From positions 13,327 to 77,326 of the forward strand of contig CAYQMG010000137.1 of the NCBI GenBank assembly GCA_964418585.1: a stretch of DNA of 64,000 bases, read 5' to 3'. Positions 271 to 25,741 of this stretch are shown one piece after another. The first letter of the stretch is position 1; each line of letters begins with the position of its first letter. The notes under the pieces were generated by a model. It did not search any database. It was not told the DNA's origin and saw only the letters and a list, made by a program, of their open reading frames with translations. The DNA is from an uncultured Gammaproteobacteria bacterium. Its GTDB lineage: Bacteria > Myxococcota_A > UBA796 > JAJRTE01. Position numbers and translations under genes: made by a program.

Positions 271-457
271 CAAAGGTGGCCTCCTCGAGTCCATGACCGG
301 CCAAACAGACCCAACGAGGAATATACTTGTCCTGTGCCGGACTCGCAAGTCTGTCGCGCCGCCGGTCCGGTGTGATTGCTTTTGACCGCGCCCCTCCCCG
401 ATGGTACCCTGGCTCCCCTGGCTCCGGCCGGCAGGCCGGGAGACACGAGGCGCCTGG

Positions 458-1052
458 ATGAGATCGCTTCTGATTTCGTGCTGCCCATGTGTGGCAGGGT
501 GCATGGCGGCCTGCAGCGGTGGGGAGCCCGAACCGGTGGAAACGCCAAACCCGGAAGGCACGGCGCGGGTCACGGCAACCCCGGAACCGACACCTGGGCC
601 AGCGGGTCCTCCGGCGGTTACGGGACCCCCTGGATCGCCCCCTCCGGTGGGCTCCACGGAGACGCACCGGAGAATGCCACGTCCGGCCCGGACTGCCACC
701 TGTTCGCCATCGACGAACGCAGTGGTCGTATCTCGTGGTGTTCCGACAGGATGAACGCCCACGCCGTCACCTCCTCACCGGTCGTGGACGTGGACGGAAA
801 CATCTATCTTGGCGACAACCGGGCCATGGTGAGCTTCACGCCGCCTTCGACGCGCTCTCCAGCGCGGGGCTGGACTCGGAGCCGTTCGGTCAAGGCACCC
901 TCACGGTCGGAACGACCATCGCTGCGACCGGCCGTGTCCTCTTCGGTACGTTGACCCATGGCCTGGTGGTCTGTGAACCGACCTCGTCCCGGACGGTCCG
1001 CACCCGGGCGTCGAGCCATGCCTCCAATCGTCCAGCCAGGAGGAAGAATTGA
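458..1052 (+). pseudogene. Degraded PQQ/BamB-like beta-propeller lipoprotein gene (fragments in three frames)
   Basis: One frame gives a lipoprotein signal and Pro/Thr linker (MRSLLISCCPCVAGCMAACSGG...). A second gives propeller-like blades (CHLFAIDERSGRISWCS..VTSSPVVDVDGNIYLGD). A third gives a C-terminal blade (GTTIAATGRVLFGTLTHGLVV). Frame changes occur near 650 and 840. Confidence 0.6.
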
Positions 1053-1076
1053 CATCAAACGGGCGGGCCGTATACT
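1049..1076 (+). promoter_or_regulatory. sigma70-type promoter TTGACA-N16-TATACT
   Basis: TTGACA at 1049-1054 and TATACT at 1071-1076; the ATG at 1084 falls at the expected transcription start. Confidence 0.7.
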
Positions 1077-1083
1077 TGAGGGC

Positions 1084-1536
1084 ATGAATGATCGGCATGC
1101 CACATCCGATGGACCGGGCCTCCGTGCCTGGTGGATGCGCCTCGAGAAACTGTTCCCGCACACGGCCGGAATCGGGCCGAGGGCGGGCGGGGCGGCGTGG
1201 CGTGGCGGAAGCGGCCGGCGGTTCATCATGCTGGTGGTCGCCGCAGCGGTCCTTCTGGTCGCGTTCGGCCACGTGGCCGGAGCCTGGGCGTTCCAGCCTG
1301 GAAACGCGCCGATCTGTTGCACCTCACAGGCGCCTCTACCCGGAGGCGCCGAGCCCGGCTTGCCCGGTGACGCCGGCTGCGCTTGCTGCTGCACCGTGTG
1401 TGGTACCATGCTGGAACCCCCGGTGTCCCGCCCCGAAGGTCCGCCCCAACTGCTCGATGCCGGCCTCGTAGACCTGTCCGAATCCATCTACCTGGACGAC
1501 GTGGTTCAGTCCATCTTCCATCCTCCACGGTTCTGA
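1084..1536 (+). CDS. Cys-rich small exported/membrane protein (CzcI/DUF2946-like) upstream of the metal efflux genes
   Basis: Hydrophobic segment (FIMLVVAAAVLLVAFGHVAGAWA), Cys clusters (ICCTS, GCACCCTVC), C-terminal IFHPPRF, and position before czcBA-like genes. Confidence 0.6.
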   Translation: MNDRHATSDGPGLRAWWMRLEKLFPHTAGIGPRAGGAAWRGGSGRRFIMLVVAAAVLLVAFGHVAGAWAFQPGNAPICCTSQAPLPGGAEPGLPGDAGCACCCTVCGTMLEPPVSRPEGPPQLLDAGLVDLSESIYLDDVVQSIFHPPRF

Positions 1537-1713
1537 CTCCTCACCATCGTTTCGGTCCTCGGGTCCTTCCGCCAGGCGGAAGGGCGGAGCAGGTCGTCGT
1601 GTCGCCCGAGCAGGCGTGTGGAACGTGATTGAAGCGCGTTGCAACGGGCGACCAGGATAGGAGCGCGGGCGCAAGGGTCCGTCCAGTATTAAACAGCTTG
1701 GAGAGACACAGAA

Positions 1714-3189
1714 ATGATTAGTTATAAACGTCGTGGGTGGTCCGGGGGCCGAACCCTGGTTTGGGTGGTGTGGCTCGTGTGGGCCGCTCCGGCCGGGTGC
1801 GGTCCGCAGGAGCGTGCGCTCCAGGTGGCCGATCGCGAGGGAGTGGGAGAGCGCGTCGAGGCCTCGAGTGGAGAGGTTGTCAGGAGCGGAGCAAGGGAGC
1901 GGGGATCCGAGGCGAGTGGGTCCGGCGGAGAGCATGAAGGGGAGGGCGGGGCGGGCCATGAGTCGGAATCGGGTCACGAATCGGGTCACGACCATGGGTC
2001 GGGGCACGGGTCGGAGGAGGCGTCGGATCTCGATCTCTCGGTGGACGCGCTGTTCGAGCTCGAGTGTGAGCACGGGTTGAAGACACATGAATGTGAGGAG
2101 TGTCGGTACGAGGTGGGCGTGGTGAAGGCGCCGCCGGAATTGTTCGAGCGTGGTCTGTTGAGTTCTGTTGTCCCCTCGAAGCGGCCGGTGGTGGTACCGC
2201 TGCGGGTGACCGGCGAGGTGCAGTTCGATGAGCGGCGGGTGATCCACGTGAGCACGCAGGCGGAGGGGATAGTGAGGCGCGTGCGTGTGACGTTGGGCGA
2301 CCGAGTGGAGAAGGGTCAACCCATGGTGGAGCTGGATTCGGTGCGCGTGGGAGATGCCGAGGCGGCCTACCTGGAGGCGCGGAGCATGCTGGAATTGGCG
2401 CGGCGGAATCTTTTGCGTGTCAAGGCGCTACGAGAGGAAGGGATTGCGTCTGAGAAGGAGTTCCTGGTGGCGGAACAGGCCGAGCAGGCGGCGAGGATTC
2501 GAGTCGACGCCGCCCTGGGGCGTCTGGTGCGACTGGGCATGCCGGAGGCGGAAGCCCGTGCGTTGACGCAGGCCAACGCAACCGGGCGGTTGGTGCTTCG
2601 GGCGCCCATGGGCGGGACTGTGCTGAGGCTTCACGCGGTTCCCGGGGAGATTGCCCAGCCCAACGAATCCCTGGCCACGGTTGGCAACAGTGAGACGGTT
2701 TGGGTGTGGGCGGACCTGTACCAGCGGGATCTGGCGCGTGTGGTGCGGGCCCAGGCGAGTGCGCCGATCGAGGCGCGGGTGATGGCGCGCGCCTATCCCG
2801 GGGAGCAGTTCCGGGGAGTGGTGGATTTCATTTCACCGGCCATGGACGAGGCGTCTCGGACCGCCCGGGTCCGGGTGAACGTACCGAATCCGGACGGGCG
2901 TTTGTTGGCCGGCATGTTCGTGGATGTGGACCTGTTCGTGCAGGATGACCGGGAGGCGATCGTGGTGCCCGAGGACGCGGTGTTGCAGGACGAGGGGCGG
3001 GAGTTCGTATTCGTGCACCACCGTGGGGCCTACTACGTGCGGCGGCCGGTCACGGTGGGTGCGGTGGTGGGAGACCTGGTGGAGATCACTCGAGGACTGG
3101 ACGGGACCGAGCGGGTGGTGGCCAACGGGGCGTTTCTCATGAAATCGGACGTGCTGCGCTCGAAGATGGGCGCGGGTTGCGCGGACTGA
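1714..3189 (+). CDS. czcB: Heavy-metal RND efflux periplasmic adaptor (CzcB/CusB family) with His-rich N-terminus
   Basis: Lipobox-like PAGC; membrane-fusion-protein motifs (LGDRVEKGQPMVELDS, LRAPMGGTV, ISPAMDEASRTARVRV, LLAGMFV); His/Glu-rich tract and CEH...HECEEC motif. Confidence 0.88.
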   Translation: MISYKRRGWSGGRTLVWVVWLVWAAPAGCGPQERALQVADREGVGERVEASSGEVVRSGARERGSEASGSGGEHEGEGGAGHESESGHESGHDHGSGHGSEEASDLDLSVDALFELECEHGLKTHECEECRYEVGVVKAPPELFERGLLSSVVPSKRPVVVPLRVTGEVQFDERRVIHVSTQAEGIVRRVRVTLGDRVEKGQPMVELDSVRVGDAEAAYLEARSMLELARRNLLRVKALREEGIASEKEFLVAEQAEQAARIRVDAALGRLVRLGMPEAEARALTQANATGRLVLRAPMGGTVLRLHAVPGEIAQPNESLATVGNSETVWVWADLYQRDLARVVRAQASAPIEARVMARAYPGEQFRGVVDFISPAMDEASRTARVRVNVPNPDGRLLAGMFVDVDLFVQDDREAIVVPEDAVLQDEGREFVFVHHRGAYYVRRPVTVGAVVGDLVEITRGLDGTERVVANGAFLMKSDVLRSKMGAGCAD

Positions 3190-3203
3190 GAGGGGAGGGG
3201 AAT

Positions 3204-6200
3204 GTGTTTGCCTTGCTTGAATTCCTGTTGCGTCGCCGGATGTTGCTGGGAATCGGAACCATCATACTCGTGGTGGCCGGTGCGATTTCCTGGATGCGGC
3301 TTCCGATCGATGCGTTTCCAGACGTCACCAATCAGCAAGTAATGATCCTGACCGAGGCCGAAGGACTCGGGCCTCTCGACGTGGAGCAGCAACTTACCTT
3401 CCCGGTCGAATGGGTGATGGGGGGACTGCCCAACGTCAAGATGGTGCGTTCTCTGTCCAAGACCGGGCTTTCCCAGGTGGTGGTCATTTTCGAGGACGAT
3501 GTGGATACCTACTTTGCCCGGCAACTCGTGTTCGAGCGCCTTCAGTTGGCCAAGGAGCAGTTGCCGGAGGGAGTGGAGCCCGAAATGGGTCCGATCAGCA
3601 CCGGGTTGGGGGAGATTTTCCAGTACACTTTGACCAGCGACCGGCACAGTCTGACCGAGTTGCGGACCTTGCAAGACTGGATGGTGGCTCCCCGACTTCG
3701 CATGCTACCAGGTGTCAACGAAGTGAACAGCATGGGAGGATTCGTTCGGCTCATTCAGGTGCGCGTAAGCCCGGAGCGGCTTCTGGAATACGGATTGACC
3801 CTCCCGGAAATCGTGGACTCGGTGGCCCGCAACAACGCCAACGCAGGCGGCAGTTTCATCACTCGAGGCTGGGAGCAGGAAAACGTGCGGAGCGTCGGCC
3901 TGTTTTCGACCATGGACGACATTCGCGACGTGGTGGTTCGAGCCGAAGATGGAACGCCGGTCTACCTGTCCGAGGTTGCCGACGTGGTCGAGAGTTCGAT
4001 GGCCCGGATGGGTGCGGTGACCCGCGATGGGCAAGGGGAAGCGGTGGCCGGGATGGTCATCATGCTCAAGGGCGAGAACTCCAAGGAGGTGGTGGAGCGG
4101 GTCAAGGCGGCTCTTCCATCCATTCAGAAAGCGTTGCCGGAAGGAGTCCAGATCGATGTCTACTATGACCGGACCGATCTGATTGAGGCCGTCATCGGCA
4201 CGGTCACCGGTGCGTTGCTCCAGGGCGGCATCTTCGTGGTCCTCGTCCTGTTCTTGCTCATCGGCAACCTACGTTCCGCCCTGGTCGTGGCGACCAGCCT
4301 GCCACTGACCGCGCTCGCCGCCTTCATCGCCATGGACGGTGCCGCGGTAACCGCCAACCTGATGAGCCTCGGGGGACTGGCCATCGCCATCGGAATGGTC
4401 GTGGACGGCTCAATTGTGGTGACCGAGAACGTGGTGCGTCACCTCAAGGAGAACCGGAACCGACCCTTGCTCGAGGTCGTGATCGGGGCCACTCGGGAGG
4501 TGGCCCGCCCGGTGCTTTTCTCCATTCTCATCATCGTGCTCGTCTTCGTGCCGCTGCTCACCCTGGGCGGCATGGAGGGCAAGATGTTTGCACCGCTGGC
4601 CAAGACCATGGTGTTCGCCATGCTCGGCTCCCTCCTGGTGGCCTTGACCATCGTGCCCATGATCCTCACCTTCTTGATGGGCAAAGGGGTGGGGACCCGG
4701 GAACCCAGGGCGTTCCTCTGGCTCCAGCGACTCTATCTGCGCGGCCTCCGAAAGGTGGTCGCCCGGCCCGGCATCACCGCAGCCGTCGCCGCCTTGCTCC
4801 TGGTTGGCACCATTGCCGCCATTCCACTGCTCGGGACCGAGTTCCTGCCACAACTCGACGAGGGCGCCATCGCCATCAACGCCGTGCGCCTCCCCAATGC
4901 ATCGGTGGAAGGTTCCCTGGAGGTCAGTTCGTTCATCGAAAAGGAATTGCTCTCCTTCCCCGAGGTGCAGACTGTGGTCAGCAAGACCGGACGGGCCGAA
5001 ATCTCCGAGGACCCGATGGGACCGGAGCAGAACGACATCCTCGTCATGCTTCATCCAGAGTCGGAATGGACCACCGGGCGAACCAAGGAAGACCTGGTCG
5101 CGGCCATGCAGGACCGCCTCGCCAGCATCCCGGGACTCCGGTTGTCTTTCAGTCAGCCCATTGCGCTCCGGGTCAACGAACTCATCTCAGGCGTGAAAAG
5201 CGACCTGGCGGTCAAGATCTTCGGCGAAGACCTGGATGTGCTCAAGAAAAACGCCGACCGTATCGCCGCTGTCCTCGGTGGCATCGAGGGCGCCGAAGAC
5301 ATCCGGGTGGAGCAAGTCACCGGGTTCACCCAACTCGACATCGTCCCGGACCGGCGGGCCATGGCCCGGTACAGACTCAACATGGCCGACATCAATGACG
5401 TGGTGGAGACCGCGGTGGGTGGAAAGATCGCCACCACCTTCATTGATGGCCAGATGAGATTCGGCGTCCAGGTTCGTTTCCCCGAAGACGCCCGCCGGGA
5501 CATCGCCACACTGGAACGTATCCTGCTCCCCACCCCTTCCGGCGCACGTGTACCCCTCGGCGAGGTGGCCTCGATCGTGCGCGTCGAGGGACCTGCGCAG
5601 GTGAGCCGGGAGAACAACATGCGGCGGGTGGTCGTGGAGGCGAACATTCGCGGACGGGATCTGGGCGGATTCGTCGCCGAGGCACAGGAAAAGTTGGCGG
5701 ACATCACCGAGGCTCTGCCCCCCGGCTACTGGATCGAGTATGGCGGCACATTCGAAAATCAGCAGCGGGCCATGGCCCGGCTCGCCGTGGTCGTCCCCCT
5801 CTCCGTCATGCTCGTCTTCTTCATGCTCGTCTCCGCCCTCGGCTCCTTGAAAACCGCTGGCCTCGTGCTCGTCAACCTCCCCTTCGCACTCGTCGGCGGA
5901 ATCGCATCCATGCTGCTCCTCGGTATCACCCTCAACGTCCCCTCCACCGTCGGATTCATCGCCCTGTTCGGCGTCGCCGTCCAGAATGGAACCGTGCTGG
6001 TCACCTTCATCAACCAGCTCCGCCAAAGGGGACGTTCGGTGGACAACGCCGTGATCGAGGCGTGTGGACTCCGCTTCCGCGCACTCCTCATGACCGCCGC
6101 CACCACCGTGCTCGGACTCCTCCCCATGGTCTACGCCGTCGGCCCCGGCGCCGAAGTCCAGAGACCCCTCGCCGTCGTGGTCATCGGAGGCCTGTTCACC

Positions 6201-6290
6201 GCCACCACCCTCACCCTCTTCGTCCTGCCGTCCTTCTACCGATGGATCGCTCCGGACCTCCCACAGATCCCGGCGGCAACCCGGTCCTGA
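3204..6290 (+). CDS. czcA: Heavy-metal efflux RND permease (CzcA/CusA family)
   Basis: About 1028 aa; LPIDAFPDVTN, GPISTGLGEI, AIGMVVDGSIVVTEN, PFALVGG, GAEVQRPLAVVVIGGL. GTG at 3204 follows a GGAGG RBS. Confidence 0.93.
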   Translation: MFALLEFLLRRRMLLGIGTIILVVAGAISWMRLPIDAFPDVTNQQVMILTEAEGLGPLDVEQQLTFPVEWVMGGLPNVKMVRSLSKTGLSQVVVIFEDDVDTYFARQLVFERLQLAKEQLPEGVEPEMGPISTGLGEIFQYTLTSDRHSLTELRTLQDWMVAPRLRMLPGVNEVNSMGGFVRLIQVRVSPERLLEYGLTLPEIVDSVARNNANAGGSFITRGWEQENVRSVGLFSTMDDIRDVVVRAEDGTPVYLSEVADVVESSMARMGAVTRDGQGEAVAGMVIMLKGENSKEVVERVKAALPSIQKALPEGVQIDVYYDRTDLIEAVIGTVTGALLQGGIFVVLVLFLLIGNLRSALVVATSLPLTALAAFIAMDGAAVTANLMSLGGLAIAIGMVVDGSIVVTENVVRHLKENRNRPLLEVVIGATREVARPVLFSILIIVLVFVPLLTLGGMEGKMFAPLAKTMVFAMLGSLLVALTIVPMILTFLMGKGVGTREPRAFLWLQRLYLRGLRKVVARPGITAAVAALLLVGTIAAIPLLGTEFLPQLDEGAIAINAVRLPNASVEGSLEVSSFIEKELLSFPEVQTVVSKTGRAEISEDPMGPEQNDILVMLHPESEWTTGRTKEDLVAAMQDRLASIPGLRLSFSQPIALRVNELISGVKSDLAVKIFGEDLDVLKKNADRIAAVLGGIEGAEDIRVEQVTGFTQLDIVPDRRAMARYRLNMADINDVVETAVGGKIATTFIDGQMRFGVQVRFPEDARRDIATLERILLPTPSGARVPLGEVASIVRVEGPAQVSRENNMRRVVVEANIRGRDLGGFVAEAQEKLADITEALPPGYWIEYGGTFENQQRAMARLAVVVPLSVMLVFFMLVSALGSLKTAGLVLVNLPFALVGGIASMLLLGITLNVPSTVGFIALFGVAVQNGTVLVTFINQLRQRGRSVDNAVIEACGLRFRALLMTAATTVLGLLPMVYAVGPGAEVQRPLAVVVIGGLFTATTLTLFVLPSFYRWIAPDLPQIPAATRS

Positions 6291-6551
6291 CCCGCAACAC
6301 AGGCCGTGCCGCAATACGCCACCCTTCACCTCCAGTCCTTCGGGGCGGGGTGAGAACCTTGCATCTCCTTGCCCGGCATCGGATATTCCATTCGGCCCTT
6401 GCGCATGGCAGATAAAGATGCTAAAGATCGAGAGGATTTGTCGAGCTTTCTCGAAAAATCACTGGTCCGCGTTCCCCCGGTCGCCGCGCACGCCCTTTCC
6501 CACGACACGACACCGGTCGAATGCCACCAGCGCAACCCAGCGTGGCATCTG

Positions 6552-7976
6552 ATGAAAACCCCTGTTAGCCTGTTCATGCCGGCCATGTTCGTTCCGTTGC
6601 TGGTCTGCACTGCGGCCTCGAGGCGCCTGGAGGGCGCCGAGGGGGCGAGTGAGGGGGAGCATGGGGTCACCTGGGCCACGGTTCAGGGGTCCTACCGTGT
6701 GAGGGCGGCGGTCGGGGGTGTCGAAGACGAAGGGGGGGATGGGGCATATCTACCGGCCGAGGCGGTGCCGGAACGCGATCATGATGTTCGGTTGCTGGCC
6801 GACGGAGGTTACACCGGGCCGGGTGAGCGCTTTACGTTCACGGCGTCTGTGGGGATCTGGTACGACGTGGACGGTGTGACTCCGGGTGCAGTGGCGACCT
6901 TTGCCTCCCTGTACGACACTCCGCAACCGTGGGCGAACGTGCTGTCACTCGTTGCCGGGTACCGTTTTGCGGGTCGGGCGGGCGAGGTTTGGGGCGGACG
7001 GCTGACCACGCCGATGGGGCTTCCAGGTACGTTCGATGGCGCGTCTGTTTCGGTGGCGCCTGGGTCTGGTCGGGTGAGGTTCGTGGCTTTTGGAGGGCGG
7101 AGCGTTCACTTTTTCGAGATGGACGCAGGATTGTTCGAGGACTGGCTGGGTTCGTTGGGAGCGGTCGTGGACCTGGGGGAGCGGGCGAGGCTGGAAATCG
7201 ACTACCGGTATACGCGGGAGGACGTTTCGTCGAGCGTGGACGATCGGGCGACGGTGGTCGATCATACGTACGGAGTCCAGCTTTTCGGGCGGTGTGGGCG
7301 GGGGGTGATGGGGCGGGTCTTTGTCCGGGGGCTCGGGGGGGCCGTGTCTCACGCCGGGGGGCGCGGCCGACTCGTGGCCTCGAGTGGCTTTTTGGGGGTG
7401 GACCTGTCCTTGGCGGCCCAGTTGGTGGCGCTCGACGAGGTCAATGAGCAACTGGATCCCTACTATGCGGTGCTGGGCCGGAGCAACCCGAACATTCGTT
7501 GGGCCATGGATGCCTGGCGCCGGGAGGATACGGGGAAAGGGGTCGTCGCGCTGCACGCCGGATGGAGTGGACGACGTCTGCTGTCCGGGGAAGAAGGGCC
7601 GTTCAACCGCAATCTGTCGCGGTTTTACCTGCTTGGAGACGGTGCAGACCTGTTTGGAAAAGGGGTGGGCCTCGGCGCGTCGTTGGCGCGACACCAGGCG
7701 GGGCGGTCGGACGCGGGCACAGAACAAGGGGTGACCACGGTGGGAGGGTGGCTGTCCTGGGCACGGTCGGGATGGCATGTTGAGGCCGGAAGCGATTACC
7801 AGTCGTTCAAGTACGACTATTTTCAGGACATCCAGGAACAGGAATCCGTCCGCACCTGGTTTCTCCGGCTTGGCTGGGACCCGCTTCCAGGGCTGCGGGT
7901 GAGTGCGCGCTACACGTTCGAACGGTCGGACCGGGATTATCATACGCTGTTCCTTGCCCTGACCAGACGTTTCTGA
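6552..7976 (+). CDS. Outer-membrane beta-barrel, probable porin of a porin-cytochrome complex
   Basis: Signal peptide, alternating aromatic/hydrophobic beta-strand pattern, C-terminal LFLALTRRF ending in Phe, directly upstream of multiheme cytochromes. Start codon uncertain. Confidence 0.7.
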   Translation: MKTPVSLFMPAMFVPLLVCTAASRRLEGAEGASEGEHGVTWATVQGSYRVRAAVGGVEDEGGDGAYLPAEAVPERDHDVRLLADGGYTGPGERFTFTASVGIWYDVDGVTPGAVATFASLYDTPQPWANVLSLVAGYRFAGRAGEVWGGRLTTPMGLPGTFDGASVSVAPGSGRVRFVAFGGRSVHFFEMDAGLFEDWLGSLGAVVDLGERARLEIDYRYTREDVSSSVDDRATVVDHTYGVQLFGRCGRGVMGRVFVRGLGGAVSHAGGRGRLVASSGFLGVDLSLAAQLVALDEVNEQLDPYYAVLGRSNPNIRWAMDAWRREDTGKGVVALHAGWSGRRLLSGEEGPFNRNLSRFYLLGDGADLFGKGVGLGASLARHQAGRSDAGTEQGVTTVGGWLSWARSGWHVEAGSDYQSFKYDYFQDIQEQESVRTWFLRLGWDPLPGLRVSARYTFERSDRDYHTLFLALTRRF

Positions 7977-7988
7977 CTGGAGGATCTC

Positions 7989-8819
7989 ATGCAACCATCC
8001 CCCTTGCGTGTGTTCGCCTTTCTTTTGACCGCCTTGCTGGTGATCGCCGTGGCGGTTCAGGCGGAAGAGCCCGAGGGTGGGGTTGTGTTTCATCACCGGG
8101 TGCACCTGGACGAGGGACTCGAGTGTCAGGACTGTCATGATGTCAGCCGGAATCGACCGGTGCTGGACCGGGAGATATGCACCGACTGTCACGACGAGAC
8201 GCCGACGGGTTTCCGACTGCCGCTCCGGGCGTTGAGGCTTCCGTTTCAGTTCTTGCACGTGAAGCACTCGAGGCGGTTTGATTGCCGGACGTGCCATCAG
8301 GGCACGGTGGCGGAGCAGCAGGCGGCAGGGCGGGTGATGGTGGAGTATGGTGCCTGCATGGCATGCCACCGGGCACGGGGGGCGCCGGTGGTGGGGACAC
8401 GTTGCGTGCAATGTCACGGGGAGGACCGCGCTCGAGTGCGGCCTGGTGATCACCGTGCAGGATGGCTGGAACAGCACGGGAAAGAGAGTCGGTGGCGGTC
8501 GGTGAAGGCGCACGGAAAAACGTGTGGTCAGTGTCACCGAACCGACACCTGCCGTTCTTGTCACCGGACGCGGCGTCCGGCGAGTCACACCGCGTTGTGG
8601 CGGAATCGTCTTCATGGGCTTGAAGCCGGGTGGGATCGTGATGGGTGCAAGACCTGTCACGAGACGGGCACGTGCGTGCAGTGCCACCGTACGACGCGGC
8701 CGCAAAACCACGCGGGGTCGTGGTTGTCTGTGCATCCGTTGGTGGCCGGTAGTGTTGGCAACGAAACCTGTCGAGTCTGTCACACCCCCGGTTTTTGCAC
8801 CGGGTGCCACGAGGGGTGA
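7989..8819 (+). CDS. Periplasmic multiheme cytochrome c (11 CxxCH), cytochrome c3-like N-terminus
   Basis: Signal peptide; 11 CxxCH counted (CQDCH, CTDCH, CRTCH, CMACH, CVQCH, CGQCH, CRSCH, CKTCH, CVQCH, CRVCH, CTGCH); VFHHRVH and FLHVKH c3-type distal-His motifs. Confidence 0.93.
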   Translation: MQPSPLRVFAFLLTALLVIAVAVQAEEPEGGVVFHHRVHLDEGLECQDCHDVSRNRPVLDREICTDCHDETPTGFRLPLRALRLPFQFLHVKHSRRFDCRTCHQGTVAEQQAAGRVMVEYGACMACHRARGAPVVGTRCVQCHGEDRARVRPGDHRAGWLEQHGKESRWRSVKAHGKTCGQCHRTDTCRSCHRTRRPASHTALWRNRLHGLEAGWDRDGCKTCHETGTCVQCHRTTRPQNHAGSWLSVHPLVAGSVGNETCRVCHTPGFCTGCHEG

Positions 8820-8830
8820 AGAGGATGTGC

Positions 8831-10039
8831 ATGGGGCTTGACGCCGCATGGCGAGGGGGATTGTTGGCGCTGGGCGCTGGTGCGGTGGCGCTCGGTCTTG
8901 GGATTGTGCTGACGGGTTGTCCCTACGATCCCTTGGCCGACGGGTTGCCCGGATCCATCACCTGTCACGATTGCCATGGGAGTGAGGCCGGCCCGGCGCC
9001 TCCCCGGTCGGTGGAAGGGGCGACCGAGACCACGGACATCGCAGTGGGCGCACACCAGAGTCATTTGTTCGGAGACGCCGACCAGCAAGCTGCCATGTGT
9101 GCAGAGTGCCACGTGGTGCCCGAGCGTGTGGACGACCCGGGTCACGTGGACGGGTATCCACCGGAAGTGACCTTCGGGGTCCTGGCGGGCGCTGGTGGGT
9201 TGAATCCTGAGTGGGATCGGGAAGCGGTGCGGTGTACCAACGTTTACTGTCACGGTGCCTCCCTGGGAGACGGTGGCGCCGTGCCGATCTGGACCGTTGT
9301 GGACGGCACCCAGGCCGCCTGCGGCACCTGTCACGGAACGCCTCCCGAGGTGACTTCGGGGGGCGCAGCACACCCTCCATATTCGAACTGCTGGACCTGC
9401 CATCCGGACACCGTGCTGGCAGACGGGGCTCTCGATCCGGAGAGTGGGACCCACATCGACGGTGTCGTCGAAATTGGAGACCTGGCATGCAATGCCTGTC
9501 ATGGAGACGATGAGAGTCCAGCGCCTCCTCCGGACACCTCGGGCAATACAGATACCTCGGCTCCAGGCGTCGGGGCACATCGCTCTCATCTCGGACCTTC
9601 CGACTGGCATGCGGAGGTGGCGTGCAACGAGTGCCACCTGGTGCCCGAGGCCATGCCCGACCCGGGTCACGTGGATTCCGCCCTGCCTGCCGAGGTCGTC
9701 TTCGGCGACCGTGCCACCGCTGGTGGGACTGCCGAGCCGGTCTACGACCCGAACGCGCATTCCTGCAATGGCATGTATTGCCACGGTTACACCCTGTTCG
9801 ATGGCGGTCCTCCCTCGCCTCCTGTGTGGACGGCCGTGGGGACCGGGGTGGCCGATTGTGGTACCTGTCACGGGCTTCCACCTGCGGCGCCGCACCTCCA
9901 GTTGGACACCTGCGACGTGTGCCACGGGTGTGTGGTGGATGACCAGCAGGCGATCGTGCCCGGGCGAGCCTACCTTCACATCAATGGTGAGGTCAATCTG
10001 GAGCCGGTGGACGCCTGTCCCGGACCACCCCAGCCGTGA
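8831..10039 (+). CDS. Lipoprotein multiheme cytochrome with CxxxxCH/CxxCH repeats (8 CxxCH + 2 Cx4CH)
   Basis: Lipobox LTGC; duplicated unit (GAHxSH..CxECH..P..PGHVD..EVxFG..CxxxYCHG..CGTCHG) typical of Geobacter-type CxxxxCH...CxxCH cytochromes. Confidence 0.88.
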   Translation: MGLDAAWRGGLLALGAGAVALGLGIVLTGCPYDPLADGLPGSITCHDCHGSEAGPAPPRSVEGATETTDIAVGAHQSHLFGDADQQAAMCAECHVVPERVDDPGHVDGYPPEVTFGVLAGAGGLNPEWDREAVRCTNVYCHGASLGDGGAVPIWTVVDGTQAACGTCHGTPPEVTSGGAAHPPYSNCWTCHPDTVLADGALDPESGTHIDGVVEIGDLACNACHGDDESPAPPPDTSGNTDTSAPGVGAHRSHLGPSDWHAEVACNECHLVPEAMPDPGHVDSALPAEVVFGDRATAGGTAEPVYDPNAHSCNGMYCHGYTLFDGGPPSPPVWTAVGTGVADCGTCHGLPPAAPHLQLDTCDVCHGCVVDDQQAIVPGRAYLHINGEVNLEPVDACPGPPQP

Positions 10040-10204
10040 CGACCGGGACAAACAACGGCCCGGGGCCTGCGGGACCCGAATGAGGCGCGGTCCGTGCCCG
10101 GCCATGGTAGACTGCGGGCGTTCGGGCATTTCGGGTGGACGGGCGGTGGGCCGGTCCCTGATCCACGTCCGGTCTGAGGCTGTGGCCTGGAGGAGGAAAA
10201 ACAG

Positions 10205-11659
10205 ATGATGGAAAACGACGAACCCGAACCTTCCTCGAGTCCCTGGTGGGCCCCGGTGTTTCGCGCGGTCATGGCCAGTCGGGTGGCTCTGGGCGCTGTT
10301 GCCACGGTCACCGTGAGTGGGTGCTTGCTGGCCCTGGTGATCGTTGCAGAGTTCAGTGGCTTCGAGATCGACCAGTACTCAGCCCTGGTCGCCTACACGA
10401 TGCTCCCTGCCTGTTTTGTCGCCGGCCTGCTCGTGCTCCCGGGCGGTATCTTGCTCGGACGGCGGAAAGCGGCCAGGCAGCAGGCCATCGGCGACCCGCT
10501 CGTGCTCGATCTTCGGCAGCCCTGGTTGTGGCGTGCCGCCGGGTTTTTCACCGTGGCCACGGCGGTCAACATCGTGCTCCTCGCGTCGGCGTCCTACCAG
10601 GGCTACCACTACACCGAAACGGTGGCATTCTGTGGAACGCTTTGTCATACGGTGATGAGGCCCGAGTACACCGCCTATCAAGGGTCCCCGCACAGCCGCG
10701 TCAAGTGTGTGGAGTGCCACATCGGTTCCGGCGCCTCCTGGTTCGTCAAGTCCAAGTTGTCAGGACTCCGGCAGGTTGTTGCGGTGGTGACCGGAGACTA
10801 TCATAGGCCCATCCCAACCCCGGTCCACAACCTCCGGCCGGCAAGGGATACCTGCGAACAGTGCCACTGGCCCGCCAAGTTCCACGGAACCAGTATCAAG
10901 GCCTGGCGAAGATACCGCGATGGTGCCCTCGAAACGCCGCTGGTCTCCGCGGTCATGCTCAAGGTGGGCGGGCGCAACCCAAGAACCGGTAAGTATTCCG
11001 GTATCCACTGGCATGTCTCGGACGACAATCAGGTCTACTATCGTACCGACGACCCCACCCGGGAGGTCATCCCGGAGGTCAAGGTGGTGCGCAGTTCCGG
11101 AAAGGAAACCCTCTTTCGCCACCTGGACCTGCCTTCGCCTCCTCCCGAAACGCCTTGGCGACGGATGGACTGCATCGACTGCCACAACCGGCCCACCCAC
11201 GGGTTCGACACCGCCGAGGATGCGGTGGATCGGGCATTCTTCGAAGGCGACCTGGACCGGTCCCTTCCCAACATTCGGGCCGCCGCACTCGAAATCCTCG
11301 GCGCCGAGTATCCCACCAACGACGCCGGCAGAGAAGGCGTCCGAAAGGCGCTCCATGCCTATTACCTGGAACACTACCCGGAGGTCGCTGCGACCAGGAA
11401 AGAAAACATCGACCGGAGCGCCGAGGCACTCGCTGCGATTTACGGGCGCAACGTTTTCCCCGAAATGAAGGTGACCTGGGGGACCTATCGGAGCAACCTG
11501 GGTCACAAGCGCGCCCCAGGCTGCTTCCGGTGCCACGACGAGGAACACGAGTCGGAAGACGGCGTCGTGATCGCCCAGGACTGCGACCTGTGCCACGAGA
11601 TCCTCGCCGAGGACGAAACCGGGGTTCCCCCCCTCCTCAAGACCCTCGAGGGCACCTGA
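10205..11659 (+). CDS. imcH: ImcH-like inner-membrane multiheme quinol oxidoreductase (NapC/NirT-related)
   Basis: Three N-terminal TM helices, then FCGTLCHTVMRPEYTAY..SPHSRVKCVECHIGSGASWFVKSK..LRPARDTCEQCHWP, CIDCHNRP, WGTYRSNLGH..PGCFRCHD, CDLCH (5 CxxCH + 1 Cx3CH). Family assigned from my recollection of ImcH motifs. Confidence 0.72.
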   Translation: MMENDEPEPSSSPWWAPVFRAVMASRVALGAVATVTVSGCLLALVIVAEFSGFEIDQYSALVAYTMLPACFVAGLLVLPGGILLGRRKAARQQAIGDPLVLDLRQPWLWRAAGFFTVATAVNIVLLASASYQGYHYTETVAFCGTLCHTVMRPEYTAYQGSPHSRVKCVECHIGSGASWFVKSKLSGLRQVVAVVTGDYHRPIPTPVHNLRPARDTCEQCHWPAKFHGTSIKAWRRYRDGALETPLVSAVMLKVGGRNPRTGKYSGIHWHVSDDNQVYYRTDDPTREVIPEVKVVRSSGKETLFRHLDLPSPPPETPWRRMDCIDCHNRPTHGFDTAEDAVDRAFFEGDLDRSLPNIRAAALEILGAEYPTNDAGREGVRKALHAYYLEHYPEVAATRKENIDRSAEALAAIYGRNVFPEMKVTWGTYRSNLGHKRAPGCFRCHDEEHESEDGVVIAQDCDLCHEILAEDETGVPPLLKTLEGT

Positions 11660-11769
11660 TTCCAGCCCCTCGAACCCTTTTCCCTTTCACTCTCCCATCC
11701 GGATCGGCTATCCGAATGAAGTCGAACAGAGGGTACTCACCCAACCTCGCAACGACTCGGGAGGATGCC

Positions 11770-13005
11770 ATGGACTCCACCAACCTTCAGGTCGACACGA
11801 CCCGCGCCACGCGACCCGGTACCCGAAGCCACAAATTTCGCCTCGGGCCCTTCAGCCCCTGCTTGGTCTTGCTCCTCGCCGGAATCAGCACCTCCGCGTT
11901 CGTCGCCGCCGGGTGTCACACCAACGAAAGCGACGACGCGGCAGTAACCACAGCGCCGACCACCAACACGCCCTCGTCGCCAACGGCCACACCCACTCCC
12001 TCGAGCGCGGGCGATGACGATTGCCTCTCCAATCCAACGCCTCCGCCAGGGGATGACGACACCACCCGGACGCCGGAAAACACGCCGGGCGCTTCGACGG
12101 CGACCCCCACGCCGCCTCCCTCCACGCCTCCCCCGTCCGGCACCCCTTCGCCCTCCCCGTCAGATACCCCGGGACAGGGCACGCCTGCACCTTCCCCCAC
12201 TCCGACGCCTGCCGGAACCCCCACACAGGACGCGGACGGAGACGGGTTTCCCGCTGCATCCGATTGCGACGACGCAGACCCGGCCGTCTATCCCGGGGCG
12301 GAAGAACAATGCGATACCAAGGACAATGACTGCGACGGCCTCACCGACGAGGATGCAGGCTGCCCTGCGCCTTGCCCAGAGGACATGGTGGCGTTCAGCG
12401 ACCGGGTATGTATCGACCGGTACGAAGCCTCTCGCCCCGACGCCACCGAGAATTCGGCTGGAACCGACGAGAGCCGTGCCACGAGTCGTCCCGGCGTCCT
12501 CCCGTGGATGGTGAATCCCATGTCCAGCGAACAGTTGGAAACGTTTGCCAGTGCCTGCAAGGCCGCAGGGAAACGCCTGTGCACGGCCGATGAGTGGCAC
12601 GATGCGTGCACCGGCCCTGACCCCGGCACCTACTATGTCTATGGCGACTCCTTCGACCGCGAAGCGTGCAACTGCGTCGATTCGTTCTGTGACGACTATT
12701 GCGCCGACCACGGGATCCAGGATGCCGAGTGCAGTCTGTCCCCCAACTGCGGCTACGAGTACAACTGTTTCCATGTGGTCCCAACCGGTCAGTTCGAATC
12801 GTGCACCAATGCGTTCGGCACGTTCGACATGAACGGCAACGTCTGGGAGGCGGTATCTTCCACTTCGGACGCTCGAGGCTACGAACTGCGAGGCGGCGCC
12901 TTCAATTGTGCCTCGGCTTCCTCGAGGGTGAATTGTGCCTACAATGCCACCTGGGAGTCTCTCTACGCCGGGTTCCGGTGTTGCCTGGACAGAACGCGCG
13001 GGTAA
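11770..13005 (+). CDS. Lipoprotein: Pro/Thr linker + one MopE-related (DxDGDG..DCDD..P..P...C) motif + FGE/SUMF1-like domain
   Basis: GGGAGGA RBS; AAGC lipobox; DADGDGFPAASDCDDADPAVYPGAEEQCDTKDNDCDG; CIDRYEAS, FGTFDMNGNVWE, LRGGAF, GFRCC. Confidence 0.82.
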   Translation: MDSTNLQVDTTRATRPGTRSHKFRLGPFSPCLVLLLAGISTSAFVAAGCHTNESDDAAVTTAPTTNTPSSPTATPTPSSAGDDDCLSNPTPPPGDDDTTRTPENTPGASTATPTPPPSTPPPSGTPSPSPSDTPGQGTPAPSPTPTPAGTPTQDADGDGFPAASDCDDADPAVYPGAEEQCDTKDNDCDGLTDEDAGCPAPCPEDMVAFSDRVCIDRYEASRPDATENSAGTDESRATSRPGVLPWMVNPMSSEQLETFASACKAAGKRLCTADEWHDACTGPDPGTYYVYGDSFDREACNCVDSFCDDYCADHGIQDAECSLSPNCGYEYNCFHVVPTGQFESCTNAFGTFDMNGNVWEAVSSTSDARGYELRGGAFNCASASSRVNCAYNATWESLYAGFRCCLDRTRG

Positions 13006-19554: not shown

Positions 19555-19774
19555 TCGGGCGTTGAACCGGGAAGGCCCGGCAAAAAACGCACTTCCCTTG
19601 TGGGGCGGGAAGCTATATACTGCAATCCTGACCCGGGAGTCGGGGGGATTGGTCCTGGAGGCATGGTGTCGCCGTGTAGGCCCTGTGTTTTCCTGGAAGG
19701 AACTATATGATTCGAGGTGCTCGGAGGTCCCCTCCAGGCAAAGCCGTGTTCTCACCAGCGAACGGAGCGTTATC

Positions 19775-22700
19775 GTGAAGAAATTTGGTGTGCAGCTATT
19801 GTTGTTCCTGTGGTTCCTCGGCATGAGTGTCGGGGTGATGACTGGGTGTTCTTCCGACGACGATGACGACGCGACCACCTACTACACGTCGGAGACGCCT
19901 CCCATCGAGGATGACGATGCGACGGGTGACGACGACGCGACCGGTGACGATGACACCGGAGGGGTGACCCCCACGCCGCCTGTGCGGCCGGGGCCGACGC
20001 CTTCGCCGACCCCGTTGCCGCCCACGCCGACAGCGACCGTACCTCCGGACCACGACGGGGACGGCTACTCCTTGGCCGAGGACTGTGACGACAAGAACCC
20101 CGACGTTCATCCTGGAGCCACCGAGGTGTGCGACAACGTGGACAACGACTGCGATGGTGTGGTCGATGGGGAGAATGCCCAGGACCGGCAGGAGTGGTAC
20201 CCGGATGCGGACCAGGACGGGTATGGAACGTCGACGGACGCGGTCATGGCCTGTTTCCAGCCGGAGGGGTATGCGGACAACGATCAGGACTGTGACGACA
20301 CCAATGCCGGGGTGAACCCGGGGGCGGAGGAGGTTTGCGACGACGAGGACCTGGACGAGAACTGTAACGGTGTCGCCGACGATGCGGACAGCAAGGCCGA
20401 CCCGGCGACCTTCAACACGTTCTATCCGGACGTGGATGACGACGGATTCGGGGACGAAAACGGGGTGCCGGTGCTCCAGTGCGACGTGCCCAAGGGATAC
20501 TCGGACAACAATCTCGACTGCAACGACGAGGATCCCAGGTTCAACCCGGACGCCCAGGAAGACGACTGCACCGATCCGAACGACTACAATTGCGACGGGA
20601 CCACCGGGTATGCCGATGCGGACGGCGACGGCTATGCCGCCTGTCAGGACTGCGACGACGGAAATCCTGCGGTGAACCCCGGGGCGACCGAGGTGTGTGA
20701 CCCGGACAATGTGGACGAGAACTGCAACGACCTGGCCGACAACGACGATCCCAAGGCGGACGATACCACCAAGAGCGCTTTCTACATCGACGCGGACGGG
20801 GACGGCTACGGTGACGAGAACGGCGTGCGGCTCGTGCTCTGCGATCCTCCCGAGGGTTACGTGGACAACAATGGGGACTGCGACGACTCCGACCCGGCTT
20901 ACAATCCCGGGGCCGTCGAGGACGACTGCACCGACCCGAACGACTACAACTGCGACGGCTCCATCGGCTCGGACGACCTGGACGGTGACGGTGTTCCAGC
21001 GTGTGAGGACTGCAACGACAACGATCCGGACATCAGCCCCCTTGCCACCGAGGTGTGCGACCCGGACAACGTGGACGAGAACTGCAACGGCCTCGCCGAC
21101 GACGCCGACGACACCACCGACCCGCTGACCAAGACCGCGTACTACCCCGACGTGGACGGCGACGGCTATGGAGACGAGACCGATCTGGGCACGCTCTACT
21201 GCGACCCGCCTGAAAACCACGTCGCGGACAACACCGACTGCAACGACGCCGATCCGGCTTACAATCCGGGGGCTGTCGAAGATGACTGCACCGATCTCGA
21301 GGACTACAACTGCGACGGCTTTTCAGGCGCCGCCGACCTCGACGGGGACGGCTTCCCCACCTGCAACGACTGTGACGACACCAACCCGGACATCAACCCC
21401 GGAGCCACCGAGGTGTGCGACCCGGACAACGTGGATGAAAACTGCAACGGCACCGCGGACGACGAGGACGCCACCGTCGATGCCGCCACTCAAGCCACCT
21501 ACTATCCGGACAGCGATCAGGACGGGTATGGAGACATGAACGACGCCGGTACCCTCTATTGCGACCCGCCCGAGGGTTACCTGCTGGACCACAGCGACTG
21601 CAACGACACGGACCCGGCCTACAATCCAGCGGCGGTCGAGACCGACTGTGAGGACCCGAACGACTACAACTGCGACGGGTTCGCAGGCGCTGATGACAAC
21701 GATGGGGACGGCTATCTCTCCTGTGAGGACTGCAACGACAGCGACCCGGCTATCAACCCCGGCGCCACCGAGGTGTGTGACGACGCGAATACCGACGAGG
21801 ACTGCGACGGGTTGGCGGACAACGACGACGACAGCGCCGCTCTCCGCACCAAGATTCGTGCCTACGTGGACAAGGATGGGGACGGCTACGGCGCCTCCGA
21901 CGACTCCGGGATTCGCGTGTGTGACCCGCCGGAGGGCTACGCGGACAACAACGGCGACTGCGACGACGGCGACGCCGGCCGCAACCCGGGCCTGCCGGAG
22001 GTGTGCGACCCGGACAACGTGGACGAGAACTGCAACGGCGTCGCCGACAACCGCGACGACACGACCGACCCTGAATCCATGTACAGCTTCTATCCCGACG
22101 CGGACGGCGACGAATATGGTGACATGAACGCCGAACCCATCGTGCGTTGTGATGTCCTCGGGGCCTACTCCACCCTCGGCACCGACTGTGACGATGCCGA
22201 CCCGGAGATCAACCCGGCGGTACAGGAGATCTGCGATGACGAGACAGACAACGACTGCGATGGGAGCACCGACTGCGACGATGGCGACTGTTCCCAGACC
22301 GCAGAGTGCATCGTGATTCCTTGCCCCTATGACGACCTCGGGTCCGCCATGGGCGAGGCTGTGGTCACCGGCTCCAACGAAGGGATGGGCGCGAACCTCA
22401 GCGGGAGTTGCCGTATCGACAGCACCGGCGAAGACGTGGCCTACAGTTGGACCGCACCGCACGACGGCACCTACACCTTCAATACCGACGGGTCGGAATA
22501 CGACACCGTCCTCTACATCCGCGACACGGACTGCGATGGGGACGAACTGGACTGTGACGACGACAGTGGTGAGGGCACACGGTCTCAGATCGTGTTGGAC
22601 CTTGTCGAGGGCCAGGTGATCGTCATTGTGATCGATGCCTACAGCAGCAACTATTCCGGTACCTACCAGCTCAATATCTTCGAGGAGCTGCCACCCACGC

Positions 22701-25700: not shown

Positions 25701-25741
25701 ATACCGGAGACTATTACCTCACGATTCTCGGCCCCTATTAG
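19775..25741 (+). CDS. 1988-aa surface lipoprotein: 12 MopE-related Cys/Asp repeats, 6 PPC-like beta-sandwiches, 2 OB-fold-like domains, CBM20-like domain
   Basis: GTG start with GGAG RBS; MTGC lipobox; repeats DxDGDG..DC(D/N)D..P..NP.A.E.C; repeated DLGS..A..GS..SC..G.DV.F.W.AP..GTY.FDT.GS.YDTVL; SIYDIQ..AVVTAV..FYMQ..SGIFVY and YGEFRLLPR; IEFKATVP..IYVSGDVAELGSWD..FQYKYTRG. Confidence 0.85.
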   Translation: MKKFGVQLLLFLWFLGMSVGVMTGCSSDDDDDATTYYTSETPPIEDDDATGDDDATGDDDTGGVTPTPPVRPGPTPSPTPLPPTPTATVPPDHDGDGYSLAEDCDDKNPDVHPGATEVCDNVDNDCDGVVDGENAQDRQEWYPDADQDGYGTSTDAVMACFQPEGYADNDQDCDDTNAGVNPGAEEVCDDEDLDENCNGVADDADSKADPATFNTFYPDVDDDGFGDENGVPVLQCDVPKGYSDNNLDCNDEDPRFNPDAQEDDCTDPNDYNCDGTTGYADADGDGYAACQDCDDGNPAVNPGATEVCDPDNVDENCNDLADNDDPKADDTTKSAFYIDADGDGYGDENGVRLVLCDPPEGYVDNNGDCDDSDPAYNPGAVEDDCTDPNDYNCDGSIGSDDLDGDGVPACEDCNDNDPDISPLATEVCDPDNVDENCNGLADDADDTTDPLTKTAYYPDVDGDGYGDETDLGTLYCDPPENHVADNTDCNDADPAYNPGAVEDDCTDLEDYNCDGFSGAADLDGDGFPTCNDCDDTNPDINPGATEVCDPDNVDENCNGTADDEDATVDAATQATYYPDSDQDGYGDMNDAGTLYCDPPEGYLLDHSDCNDTDPAYNPAAVETDCEDPNDYNCDGFAGADDNDGDGYLSCEDCNDSDPAINPGATEVCDDANTDEDCDGLADNDDDSAALRTKIRAYVDKDGDGYGASDDSGIRVCDPPEGYADNNGDCDDGDAGRNPGLPEVCDPDNVDENCNGVADNRDDTTDPESMYSFYPDADGDEYGDMNAEPIVRCDVLGAYSTLGTDCDDADPEINPAVQEICDDETDNDCDGSTDCDDGDCSQTAECIVIPCPYDDLGSAMGEAVVTGSNEGMGANLSGSCRIDSTGEDVAYSWTAPHDGTYTFNTDGSEYDTVLYIRDTDCDGDELDCDDDSGEGTRSQIVLDLVEGQVIVIVIDAYSSNYSGTYQLNIFEELPPTPTPVPQCPDYDLGSAVGDAVATGSSDGAVDRYEPSCVYSSGGGEITFRWVAPETGEYVFDTNGSDYDTTLALFRSCADPVELECDDDGGDGLQSSLSYTFSAGDEVLIILDSSSSSASGSYVLNINLLAAVTPGPTATPVATATPAPTATPAPSCPQYDLGSVVGSAVATGSNLNEVSNFDGSCAYSTGGRDVSFAWTAPETGTYTFDTIGSSYDTVLMLYDTCGGTELACDDDGAGSLKSEITRDFVAGESVIIVIDGAFSTSSGDYVLNISGGAVVTPTPSPTPPPTASPFPSVCPDADLGSAVGPAVVEGSNVGTGNEFEGSCAYSTGGEDVAFTWTAPNSGTYVFDTVGSDYDTVLMIYSECGGTERACDDDGAGSLKSRISMDLLAGDMILIVIDAASSYSSGNYVLNITPPSLETPTPTPIGCPEFDLGSAIGPAVAIGDNTGAGDDFEGDCAWAFGGEDVTYGWVAPETGTYTFDTIGSSFDTVLFLYADGQCGGTELGCNEDIGGGVYQSSVTVDLEAGESVVIVVDGYSGSTNGEYVLNITQETTPSTCTSIYDIQDVSSLAHPAEDTLLDVCPAVVTAVLNSGAFYMQAAEGGAYSGIFVYQSSSTGITPEDLAIGDVVEVTGTYVEYNGLSEISLTANKDSSSVTVVGQVAPLAPEIVDSPADIGTTVGDCSNKTAGPLAEAYESVLVAVENVVVTDTDPCGEGSYGIWEVSDSMLVDDTFDYLYVPNVGDEINLLAGISTYAYGEFRLLPRSNRDIDLAAWKSIEFKATVPPNTPASDMIYVSGDVAELGSWDAAGVPMETEDGVIWTATVLIPAGVEFQYKYTRGTWDTVEGTADCGYMDNRTGLANANKTIVDTIAGWEDCPAVQLACTPDQDLGASIGYYVATGSNASATDDYSPSTCASGSVGGKDVTFKWSVPESGCYYFDTYAPYYSSSYDTVLYILETDCSTEIACDDDGSYSYWGESEIESFCLDAGTTVVIVVDAYSSTDTGDYYLTILGPY
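20400..21840 (+). repeat. Intragenic tandem repeat with an exact 360-nt (120-aa) period, about 4 copies
   Basis: GACTACAA(T/C)TGCGACGG recurs at 20582, 20942, 21302 and 21662. Confidence 0.85.

Follow-up and report, generated by a model that had tools for sequence, protein, structure and literature searches.

We analyzed a cluster of four genes at positions 6552 to 11659 of a 64-kb stretch of DNA from an uncultured bacterium (contig CAYQMG010000137.1), hereafter referred to as the window. All four genes are on the + strand, and they encode a predicted outer-membrane barrel, two multiheme c-type cytochromes, and a multiheme protein of the ImcH family. The genes, and the spacer that precedes the last of them, are as follows.

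g1, 6552-7976, + strand: 474 amino acids; predicted 22-stranded outer-membrane barrel (sheath or "porin") with a signal peptide and a C-terminal Phe, plug-less
g2, 7989-8819, + strand: 276 amino acids; secreted (periplasmic) 11-heme c-type cytochrome with c7-like modules
g3, 8831-10039, + strand: 402 amino acids; decaheme lipoprotein, predicted to be in the outer membrane, with two tandem pentaheme repeats
g3-g4 spacer, 10040-10204, + strand: 165 nucleotides, without terminator, Rfam match, or unusual fold; poorly conserved
g4, 10205-11659, + strand: 484 amino acids; ImcH-family inner-membrane multiheme quinol oxidoreductase

An original prediction, made by reading the sequence without database searches, had described four co-oriented genes, the first three about 12 nucleotides apart, with 27 heme-binding motifs. 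The gaps are 12 nucleotides (g1-g2), 11 nucleotides (g2-g3), and 165 nucleotides (g3-g4), and a recount of the motifs gave an identical result (24 CxxCH, 2 CxxxxCH, and 1 CxxxCH). By gene, there are 11 CxxCH in g2, 8 CxxCH and 2 CxxxxCH in g3, and 5 CxxCH and 1 CxxxCH in g4. Codon-position GC content is of the coding type in all four open reading frames (ORFs), and Shine-Dalgarno-like sequences precede g2, g3, and g4. An in-frame ATG at 8825 is an alternative start for g3. Six-frame translation of the rest of the window (ORFs of at least 60 amino acids outside g2-g4) revealed three ORFs with one CxxCH each, indicating that the concentration of heme motifs in the cluster is not due to chance. 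Named relatives belong to Myxococcota and Polyangia, in line with the myxobacteria-like lineage that had been proposed.

Since the gaps between them are only 11 and 12 nucleotides, g1, g2, and g3 are almost certainly co-transcribed. Co-transcription of g4 with these genes is plausible from the sequence. A scan of the g3-g4 spacer for terminators on the + strand (a hairpin followed by a run of T) gave no match, and the spacer had no Rfam match and no unusual RNA fold (z-score of -0.18). In an alignment of the window with two related loci, L001 and L085, neither this spacer nor the other intergenic regions were conserved. Because sigma-54 activators flank two other related loci (L083 and L087), sigma-54 promoters were also searched for; the window had no more matches than shuffled sequences did, and neither g1 nor g4 was preceded by one.

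The ImcH family has been defined by three transmembrane (TM) helices, an adjacent atypical CX3CH motif, and five to nine CX2CH motifs (Zhong & Shi, PMC6295460). Hydropathy analysis placed TM segments of g4 at approximately residues 29-50, 60-84, and 108-129, and its heme motifs begin at residues 143, 168, 217, 323, 440, and 460. The first of these is a CxxxCH (CGTLCH) located 14 residues past the third TM segment. All three defining features are thus present, which argues for membership of the ImcH family. Table S3 of the same survey lists Geobacter GSU3259 with motifs at 132, 156, 205, 311, 428, 448, and 486 and TM segments at 13-35, 45-67, and 100-122 (PMC6295460). Compared through these tabulated positions, the spacing between successive motifs is 25/49/106/117/20 in g4 and 24/49/106/117/20 in GSU3259. 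g4 has six motifs rather than seven, the C-terminal heme being absent, as it is in the listed Anaeromyxobacter, Geothrix, and Acidobacterium proteins. The six motifs are invariant in an alignment of 19 sequences, apart from a single sequence in which the first is a CxxCH. g4 also aligned over most of its length with two ImcH proteins that appear in Table S3 of PMC6295460, those of Acidobacteria bacterium RIFCSPLOWO2_12_FULL_66_21 (43% identity over 455 amino acids, E of 1e-135) and Zixibacteria RBG-1 (40% identity over 473 amino acids, E of 9e-142).

Membership of the NapC/NirT/CymA/NrfH group, whose proteins have a single TM helix and four hemes rather than the three helices and six hemes of g4, was considered and rejected. 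The NapC/NirT, NrfH, and TorC models were failed by wide margins. PF03264 matched the N-terminal part of g4 alone (profile positions 8-100 of 174), and the scores were 13 bits for TIGR02161 (cutoff of 310.6) and 46 bits for the NrfH model (cutoff of 134). A g4-family profile matched the NrfH structure 2J7A only around the TM helix and the first heme. By sequence, then, g4 belongs with ImcH rather than with NapC, CymA, or NrfH. The ImcH-like quinol oxidoreductase of the original prediction is supported by these profile hidden Markov model (HMM) searches, by the architecture and motif spacing, and by 40-43% identity to family members; the alternative it had raised, clustering with other NapC families, was not observed.

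The g1 product carries no heme motif, begins with a signal-peptide-like sequence, and ends in Phe. Its AlphaFold2 (AF2) model, built from a 60-sequence alignment, has 22 antiparallel strands connected by short turns only and contains no plug (predicted local distance difference test score [pLDDT] of 86.2; predicted template modeling score of 0.81). This model supersedes an earlier one from four sequences (pLDDT of 55). g1 matched no Pfam or NCBIfam family. Foldseek searches of the PDB returned generic outer-membrane barrels alone (ushers, BtuB, OccK, and AlgE; template modeling scores of 0.48 or less), and MtrB was not among the best 50 matches. PF11854, the MtrB/PioB model, did not match g1 and weakly matched 1 of 60 members of its family (3e-4); a few members weakly matched Porin_4. 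As a positive control, the MtrB of locus L059 scored 1.4e-128 against PF11854. g1 had appeared to be a near-unique protein, with three relatives in a word-indexed search, but this was a prefilter artifact: an exhaustive HMM search recovered 462 family representatives (counted at the 50% identity level) with E ≤1e-3, of which 77 reached E ≤1e-30. Ten remote members retrieved by cluster look-up were all annotated "hypothetical protein" and all came from metagenome-assembled genomes (MAGs).

These results make g1 a confidently predicted outer-membrane barrel of an unnamed family. By standard barrel geometry, 22 strands give a backbone radius of approximately 20 Å, much wider than that of a diffusion porin, and the modeled width would be in the range needed to sheath a heme-wire protein. 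The "porin" of the original prediction is thus, according to AF2, a 22-stranded outer-membrane barrel. An unrelated receptor, which had been named as the alternative, finds no counterpart in the searches: g1 matched neither a receptor nor an Mtr family, and multiheme genes are nearly always next to members of its family.

The g2 protein packs its 11 CxxCH motifs into approximately 250 mature residues. It has a cleavable type I signal peptide (AVQA/EE), which contains its sole hydrophobic segment, and lacks a lipobox or a further TM helix. Domain matches were to PF14522 (8.9e-13) and to PpcA-like proteins. The score against TIGR03508 (DmsE/MtrA) was 25.2 bits, below the cutoff of 192. Assignment of the cluster to the MtrCAB/MtoAB/PioAB systems was accordingly rejected, as g1 failed PF11854 and g2 failed TIGR03508.

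g3 consists of two pentaheme repeats of approximately 175 amino acids, each with the motif order CxxCH, CxxCH, CxxxxCH, CxxCH, CxxCH (residues 45, 90, 135, 164, and 187 in the first repeat and 220, 265, 312, 343, and 361 in the second). The two CxxxxCH motifs are CTNVYCH and CNGMYCH. A 10-heme lipoprotein of the CxxxxCH/CxxCH type had been predicted, and g3 indeed passed TIGR01904 in two stretches (91.3 bits, cutoff of 27) as well as PF09698 (37 bits, cutoff of 21.7). The lipobox, LTGC, is kept in four relatives (L001, L083, L085, and L086). More than 1000 relatives of g3 were found, mostly annotated as Myxococcota and the majority with three to four repeats; a sequence search found no relative with a solved structure. 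The C-terminus of g3 (approximately positions 10000-10036) has a conserved G/A-x-C-P-x-P-P tail with an extra unpaired cysteine, which is also present in L001, L085, and L086 and is limited to two-repeat CxxxxCH lipoproteins.

Gene linkage was analyzed for relatives of g1 found in genomes and in a metagenome scan with a 14-sequence porin alignment. Among the 36 loci with at least 400 nucleotides of downstream sequence, a multiheme ORF begins approximately 0-30 nucleotides past the porin stop codon in 35, with ORF over-extension blurring the start in some. In 19 of these loci the ORF encodes an 11-heme g2-like protein of 276-286 amino acids, and the gene after it usually encodes a CxxxxCH protein with 5-22 hemes. 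The heme number of this third-gene cytochrome varies (5, 10, 15, or 20-22). Adjacency to cytochrome genes is retained even though the porin sequences of these relatives are only 20-55% identical. The full order porin-g2-g3-ImcH occurs in four genomes: the window, L001 (GCA_024278455.1; porin 59% identical to g1 by BLASTP), L085 (GCA_964516475.1), and the much more divergent L083 (GCA_043821645.1; porin score of only 240 bits), in which the block is extended by two multiheme genes upstream and two CbcL-like genes downstream. The quinol-linked genes found beside the porin-cytochrome cassette are listed below.

ImcH gene directly downstream of the cassette: window, L001, L085, L083
ImcH gene divergent or nearby: L099, L119, L089
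CbcL-like gene directly upstream: L087, L092, L094
CbcL-like gene in other positions: L083, L090
NrfCD-like module: L088
No adjacent quinol module: L086 and others

Linkage of ImcH to the cassette is therefore conserved but optional, not obligatory. The gene order described in the original prediction recurs in the four genomes, and most cassettes of the porin family lack ImcH. The swapping of non-homologous but functionally equivalent quinol partners argues for functional coupling between these partners and the cassette. A scan of GTDB genomes with an ImcH alignment gave at least 80 loci, mostly from Acidobacteriota and Gammaproteobacteria; Geobacter was not among the matches listed. No g1- or g3-like genes were found among the at least 80 ImcH loci listed, and a weak g2 match occurred in L024 alone. 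Among the matches listed, 63 of 82 loci had a multiheme ORF within 3 kb of ImcH.

Several of the related loci have further features. L083 (1336-15787) comprises eight genes encoding two multiheme proteins (one with CarboxypepD_reg), the porin, the 11-heme protein, a 15-heme CxxxxCH protein, ImcH, and two CbcL-like proteins, with a sigma-54 activator upstream; its MAG is labeled "Pseudomonadota," yet the cassette has its nearest named relatives in Myxococcota. In L087 (2861-16324), a gene for a 911-amino-acid CbcL-like protein precedes the cassette, which is followed by genes for the system II maturation proteins ResB and CcsA, a histidine kinase, a sigma-54 response regulator, and a small cytochrome c3. 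The L088 operon (374-10103), which has the NrfCD/ACIII-like quinol module, encodes a g1-like barrel (229 bits), two multiheme cytochromes, a monoheme cytochrome c, NrfD, and a 4Fe-4S protein and is divergent from the gene for a 700-amino-acid CxxxxCH cytochrome. In a sub-branch of the porin family (L107, L110, L114, L120, and L121), the barrel is followed by a 5-6-heme CxxxxCH protein (approximately 207-255 amino acids) and, approximately 2 kb further, by a 27-30-heme protein of approximately 690-760 amino acids. A metagenome contig, L115 (JGI Ga0256914_1030777, 2661 bp), matches the end of g1 at 99% identity and also encodes g2 and g3. The same organism thus occurs in a public JGI sample, which could serve as a source of expression data.

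The cluster in the window is flanked by genes of other kinds. Upstream, on the + strand, the gene for a CzcB-like adaptor (1714-3189) is followed by that for a heavy-metal RND pump of the CusA/CzcA family (3177-6290; TIGR00914, 1127 bits, cutoff of 701), which ends 262 nucleotides before g1. Directly 3' of g4 is a gene for a secreted 416-amino-acid protein (11755-13005, +) with MopE-type putative metal-binding repeats and an FGE-sulfatase domain. A secreted protein of 2059 amino acids encoded at 19562-25741 (+) has eight MopE repeats together with CBM20 and GLEYA domains, and L001 likewise has a MopE/CBM20 protein near its cluster.

Taken together, we consider it probable that in this uncultured Myxococcota lineage the four genes encode a porin-cytochrome (Pcc)-type trans-envelope conduit linked to an inner-membrane quinol oxidase of its own. 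Three criteria have been given for recognizing a conduit cluster (Jimenez Otero et al. 2018, PMC6148476), and the corresponding components were all found in silico: a periplasmic multiheme cytochrome (g2), an outer-membrane beta-barrel (g1), and a redox lipoprotein (g3). The strict gene adjacency across approximately 35 loci would fit assembly of the three into a single complex across the outer membrane. By analogy with MtrCAB and with the Pcc and ImcH systems of Geobacter, g4 would oxidize menaquinol on the periplasmic side of the inner membrane, thereby loading its six c-hemes. Electrons might then pass to g2 directly or, more likely, via soluble periplasmic cytochromes encoded elsewhere. 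g2 would thread into the plug-less 22-stranded g1 barrel, thereby crossing the outer membrane, and outside it would pass electrons to the lipid-anchored decaheme g3. The extracellular acceptor reduced by g3 would probably be one of fairly high potential; candidates are minerals of Fe(III) or Mn(IV), humic substances, metal(loid) ions, and a partner cell. Such outward flow may allow energy to be conserved. In Geobacter, the use of acceptors above -100 mV depends on ImcH, which also reduces PpcA in vitro (PMC13591261); this role in feeding extracellular acceptors is known for G. sulfurreducens alone.

A number of observations weigh against this interpretation. ImcH is absent beside most cassettes of the g1 porin family, and in other Myxococcota the nearest ImcH homologues stand alone or are paired only with a CbcL-like gene. 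The 64-kb window encodes no other cytochrome c genes, including that for a small periplasmic shuttle. The 165-nucleotide gap before g4 could hold a promoter. A lipobox cannot predict surface exposure, so the position of g3 on the outer face is a presumed one. Finally, all members of the g1, g2, and g3 families come from MAGs.

The original prediction went further and described a self-contained wire from the quinone pool to the cell surface. Its components and their linkage were recovered, whereas "one operon" and "self-contained" are not established: g4 lies beyond the 165-nucleotide gap, and the window lacks a small periplasmic cytochrome of the kind to which Geobacter ImcH passes electrons (PpcA; PMC13591261). 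In the strong form of this idea, g4 would dock directly on the g2 wire in its g1 sheath without a soluble carrier, giving a self-sufficient and portable path. We regard this as improbable. If true, it would be the first ImcH-based pathway encoded as one block and transferable as a unit; the patchy distribution of the cassette in Myxococcota and its presence in the MAG labeled "Pseudomonadota" hint at such transferability.

Three other explanations were weighed, and all rank well below a conduit that carries electrons outward from its own quinol oxidase. The first retains the same hardware and reverses the flow: a donor outside the cell, such as Fe(II), a reduced mineral, a cathode, or a partner cell, would supply electrons inward to g4, which would reduce quinones or feed a periplasmic sink. 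Sequences fix no direction, and the lineage is known from MAGs alone. Homologues of Mtr, Mto, and Pio and CymA/CbcL-type enzymes are bidirectional (PMC6295460), and the reversibility of NapC/NirT-type enzymes is a further point against a strictly outward path. ImcH homologues, however, have to date been linked solely to quinol oxidation, and all come from Fe(III) reducers (PMC6295460). The midpoint potential of Geobacter ImcH is also low, at approximately -196 mV (PMC13591261), so that reducing quinones with electrons from Fe(II) would be uphill, and no genes for Cyc2, carbon fixation, or reverse electron transport lie beside the cluster in the window. Inward flow is thus unlikely.

Slightly less likely again is that the cluster encodes a detoxifying surface reductase, within a metal-resistance island, that acts on soluble metal(loid)s, for example selenite, tellurite, chromate, Cu(II), or arsenate. 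The adaptor and RND pump genes that end 262 nucleotides upstream on the same strand would suit such an island, as would the genes that follow ImcH elsewhere, those for an ArsP permease and a thioredoxin in L085 and for an LMWPc protein (ArsC-like fold) in L001. There is also a precedent in the Geobacter porin ExtI, which is needed for selenite and tellurite reduction (PMC6148476; PMC5877670). Yet the flanks differ among the four ImcH-linked loci, and in L001 the RND pump and the porin are approximately 10 kb apart with unrelated genes between them. In the wider family, the neighbors are kinases, sigma-54 regulators, and ResB/CcsA, and coupling to a respiratory-family quinol oxidase fits energy metabolism better. 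It is very improbable that g1 is an ordinary diffusion porin beside the cytochromes of a periplasmic pathway that does not cross the outer membrane: the exclusively generic Foldseek matches (porin, usher, and TonB-receptor barrels) and the weak Porin_4 matches of a few family members would allow it, but a multiheme gene lies 0-30 nucleotides downstream in essentially every relative at 20-55% identity, diffusion porins, with 16-18 strands, are far narrower than this plug-less barrel of 22, and g3 has a conserved lipobox.

An outward conduit with a linked quinol oxidase would bear on how electrons enter such pathways. ImcH is, to our knowledge, one of only three known entry-point families into extracellular electron transfer. 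The Geobacter gene, imcH (GSU3259), is reported to lie apart from those for the conduits, as the original prediction also stated, so its downstream partners have had to be inferred biochemically. An ImcH gene conserved behind a specific cassette names a concrete, genetically defined set of partners. The four-gene block is also a compact candidate for moving a complete pathway into a laboratory host, as has reportedly been done with mtrCAB plus cymA. The unannotated barrel family, with 462 representatives and no Pfam model, is marked by its neighbors as a putative cytochrome sheath. Myxococcota are abundant and uncultured in sediments and soils, and a model of the g1 family would improve the prediction of electroactive members there.

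The closest parallel in composition is with the conduits of Geobacter sulfurreducens (OmbB-OmaB-OmcB, ExtABCD, ExtEFG, and ExtHIJKL), which likewise combine a barrel, a periplasmic multiheme cytochrome, and a lipoprotein multiheme cytochrome (PMC6148476, PMC4245776). Their barrels have 18-22 predicted strands and their genes are tightly clustered (PMC6148476, PMC4245776). As in those conduits (PMC6148476), the periplasmic partner is conserved and the surface cytochrome variable, and the CxxxxCH/CxxCH domain of g3 was first defined in G. sulfurreducens (TIGR01904). Orthology, however, is not detectable, g1 having no family match and the likeness being one of published descriptions rather than direct alignment. 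g2 has 11 hemes, compared with 8 in OmaB and 12 in ExtA and ExtG, and the order porin, periplasmic cytochrome, lipoprotein, with an ImcH gene directly downstream, is unlike that of the Geobacter conduits. The position of g4 beside an outer-membrane conduit cassette also sets it apart within the ImcH family: in a 2018 survey, imcH was found beside c-type cytochrome genes but never beside mtrAB (PMC6295460).

Conduit and quinone oxidoreductase do share a locus in Shewanella MtrCAB with CymA and in mtr/mto clusters with cymA or mtrH/mtoC, such as those of Sideroxydans ES-1 and Rhodoferax (PMC4245776, PMC6295460). As here, the conduit genes encode a sheath barrel, a cytochrome of the decaheme class inserted into it, and a lipoprotein cytochrome at the surface. 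The proteins are different from those described here. g1 has 22 strands and 474 amino acids and no PF11854 match, whereas MtrB/PioB barrels have 26-28 strands and approximately 700 amino acids, and g4 has three TM helices and six hemes, whereas CymA is a tetraheme protein with a single TM helix. In the GTDB scan, an ImcH homologue and a CbcL-like gene adjoined true mtrCAB in MAGs of Woeseiaceae and other Gammaproteobacteria (L059 1307-11404; also L009, L033, L036, and L073). These loci encode a PF11854-positive MtrB (1.4e-128 in L059), a 10-heme MtrA-like protein, and a 10-heme MtrC-like protein, divergent from the CbcL-like protein (11 hemes and a cytochrome b domain) and the ImcH homologue. 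In MAGs of Candidatus Acidoferrum and Acidobacteriota (L020, L057, and L058), one-strand clusters encode a 10-heme protein of approximately 340 amino acids and then an 840-905-amino-acid protein ending in YAF, which has no Pfam match and is possibly a large barrel. These are followed by cytochrome b (PF00033), a 9-heme protein, an ImcH homologue, and a 13-heme protein.

Pcc clusters that include a cytoplasmic-membrane cytochrome (Dester_0351, Theam_0871, and Geob_1683; Shi et al. 2014), with a proposed link to the quinone pool, are similar in concept. Those cytochromes are of the formate-dehydrogenase cytochrome b/CbcL type, from Aquificae and Geobacter, and not ImcH, and the porin and cytochromes described here belong to different, unnamed families. 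A preprint reports that Myxococcota carry the most novel putative cytochrome clusters for extracellular electron transfer (10.1101/2022.03.26.485925), and we found no description of this porin-cytochrome-ImcH cassette in the literature. Clusters that combine a conduit with a quinol oxidase have thus already been described for Mtr/Mto and for some Pcc systems; what is new here is a Myxococcota cassette that is built on an unnamed family of predicted 22-strand barrels and joined to a six-heme ImcH.

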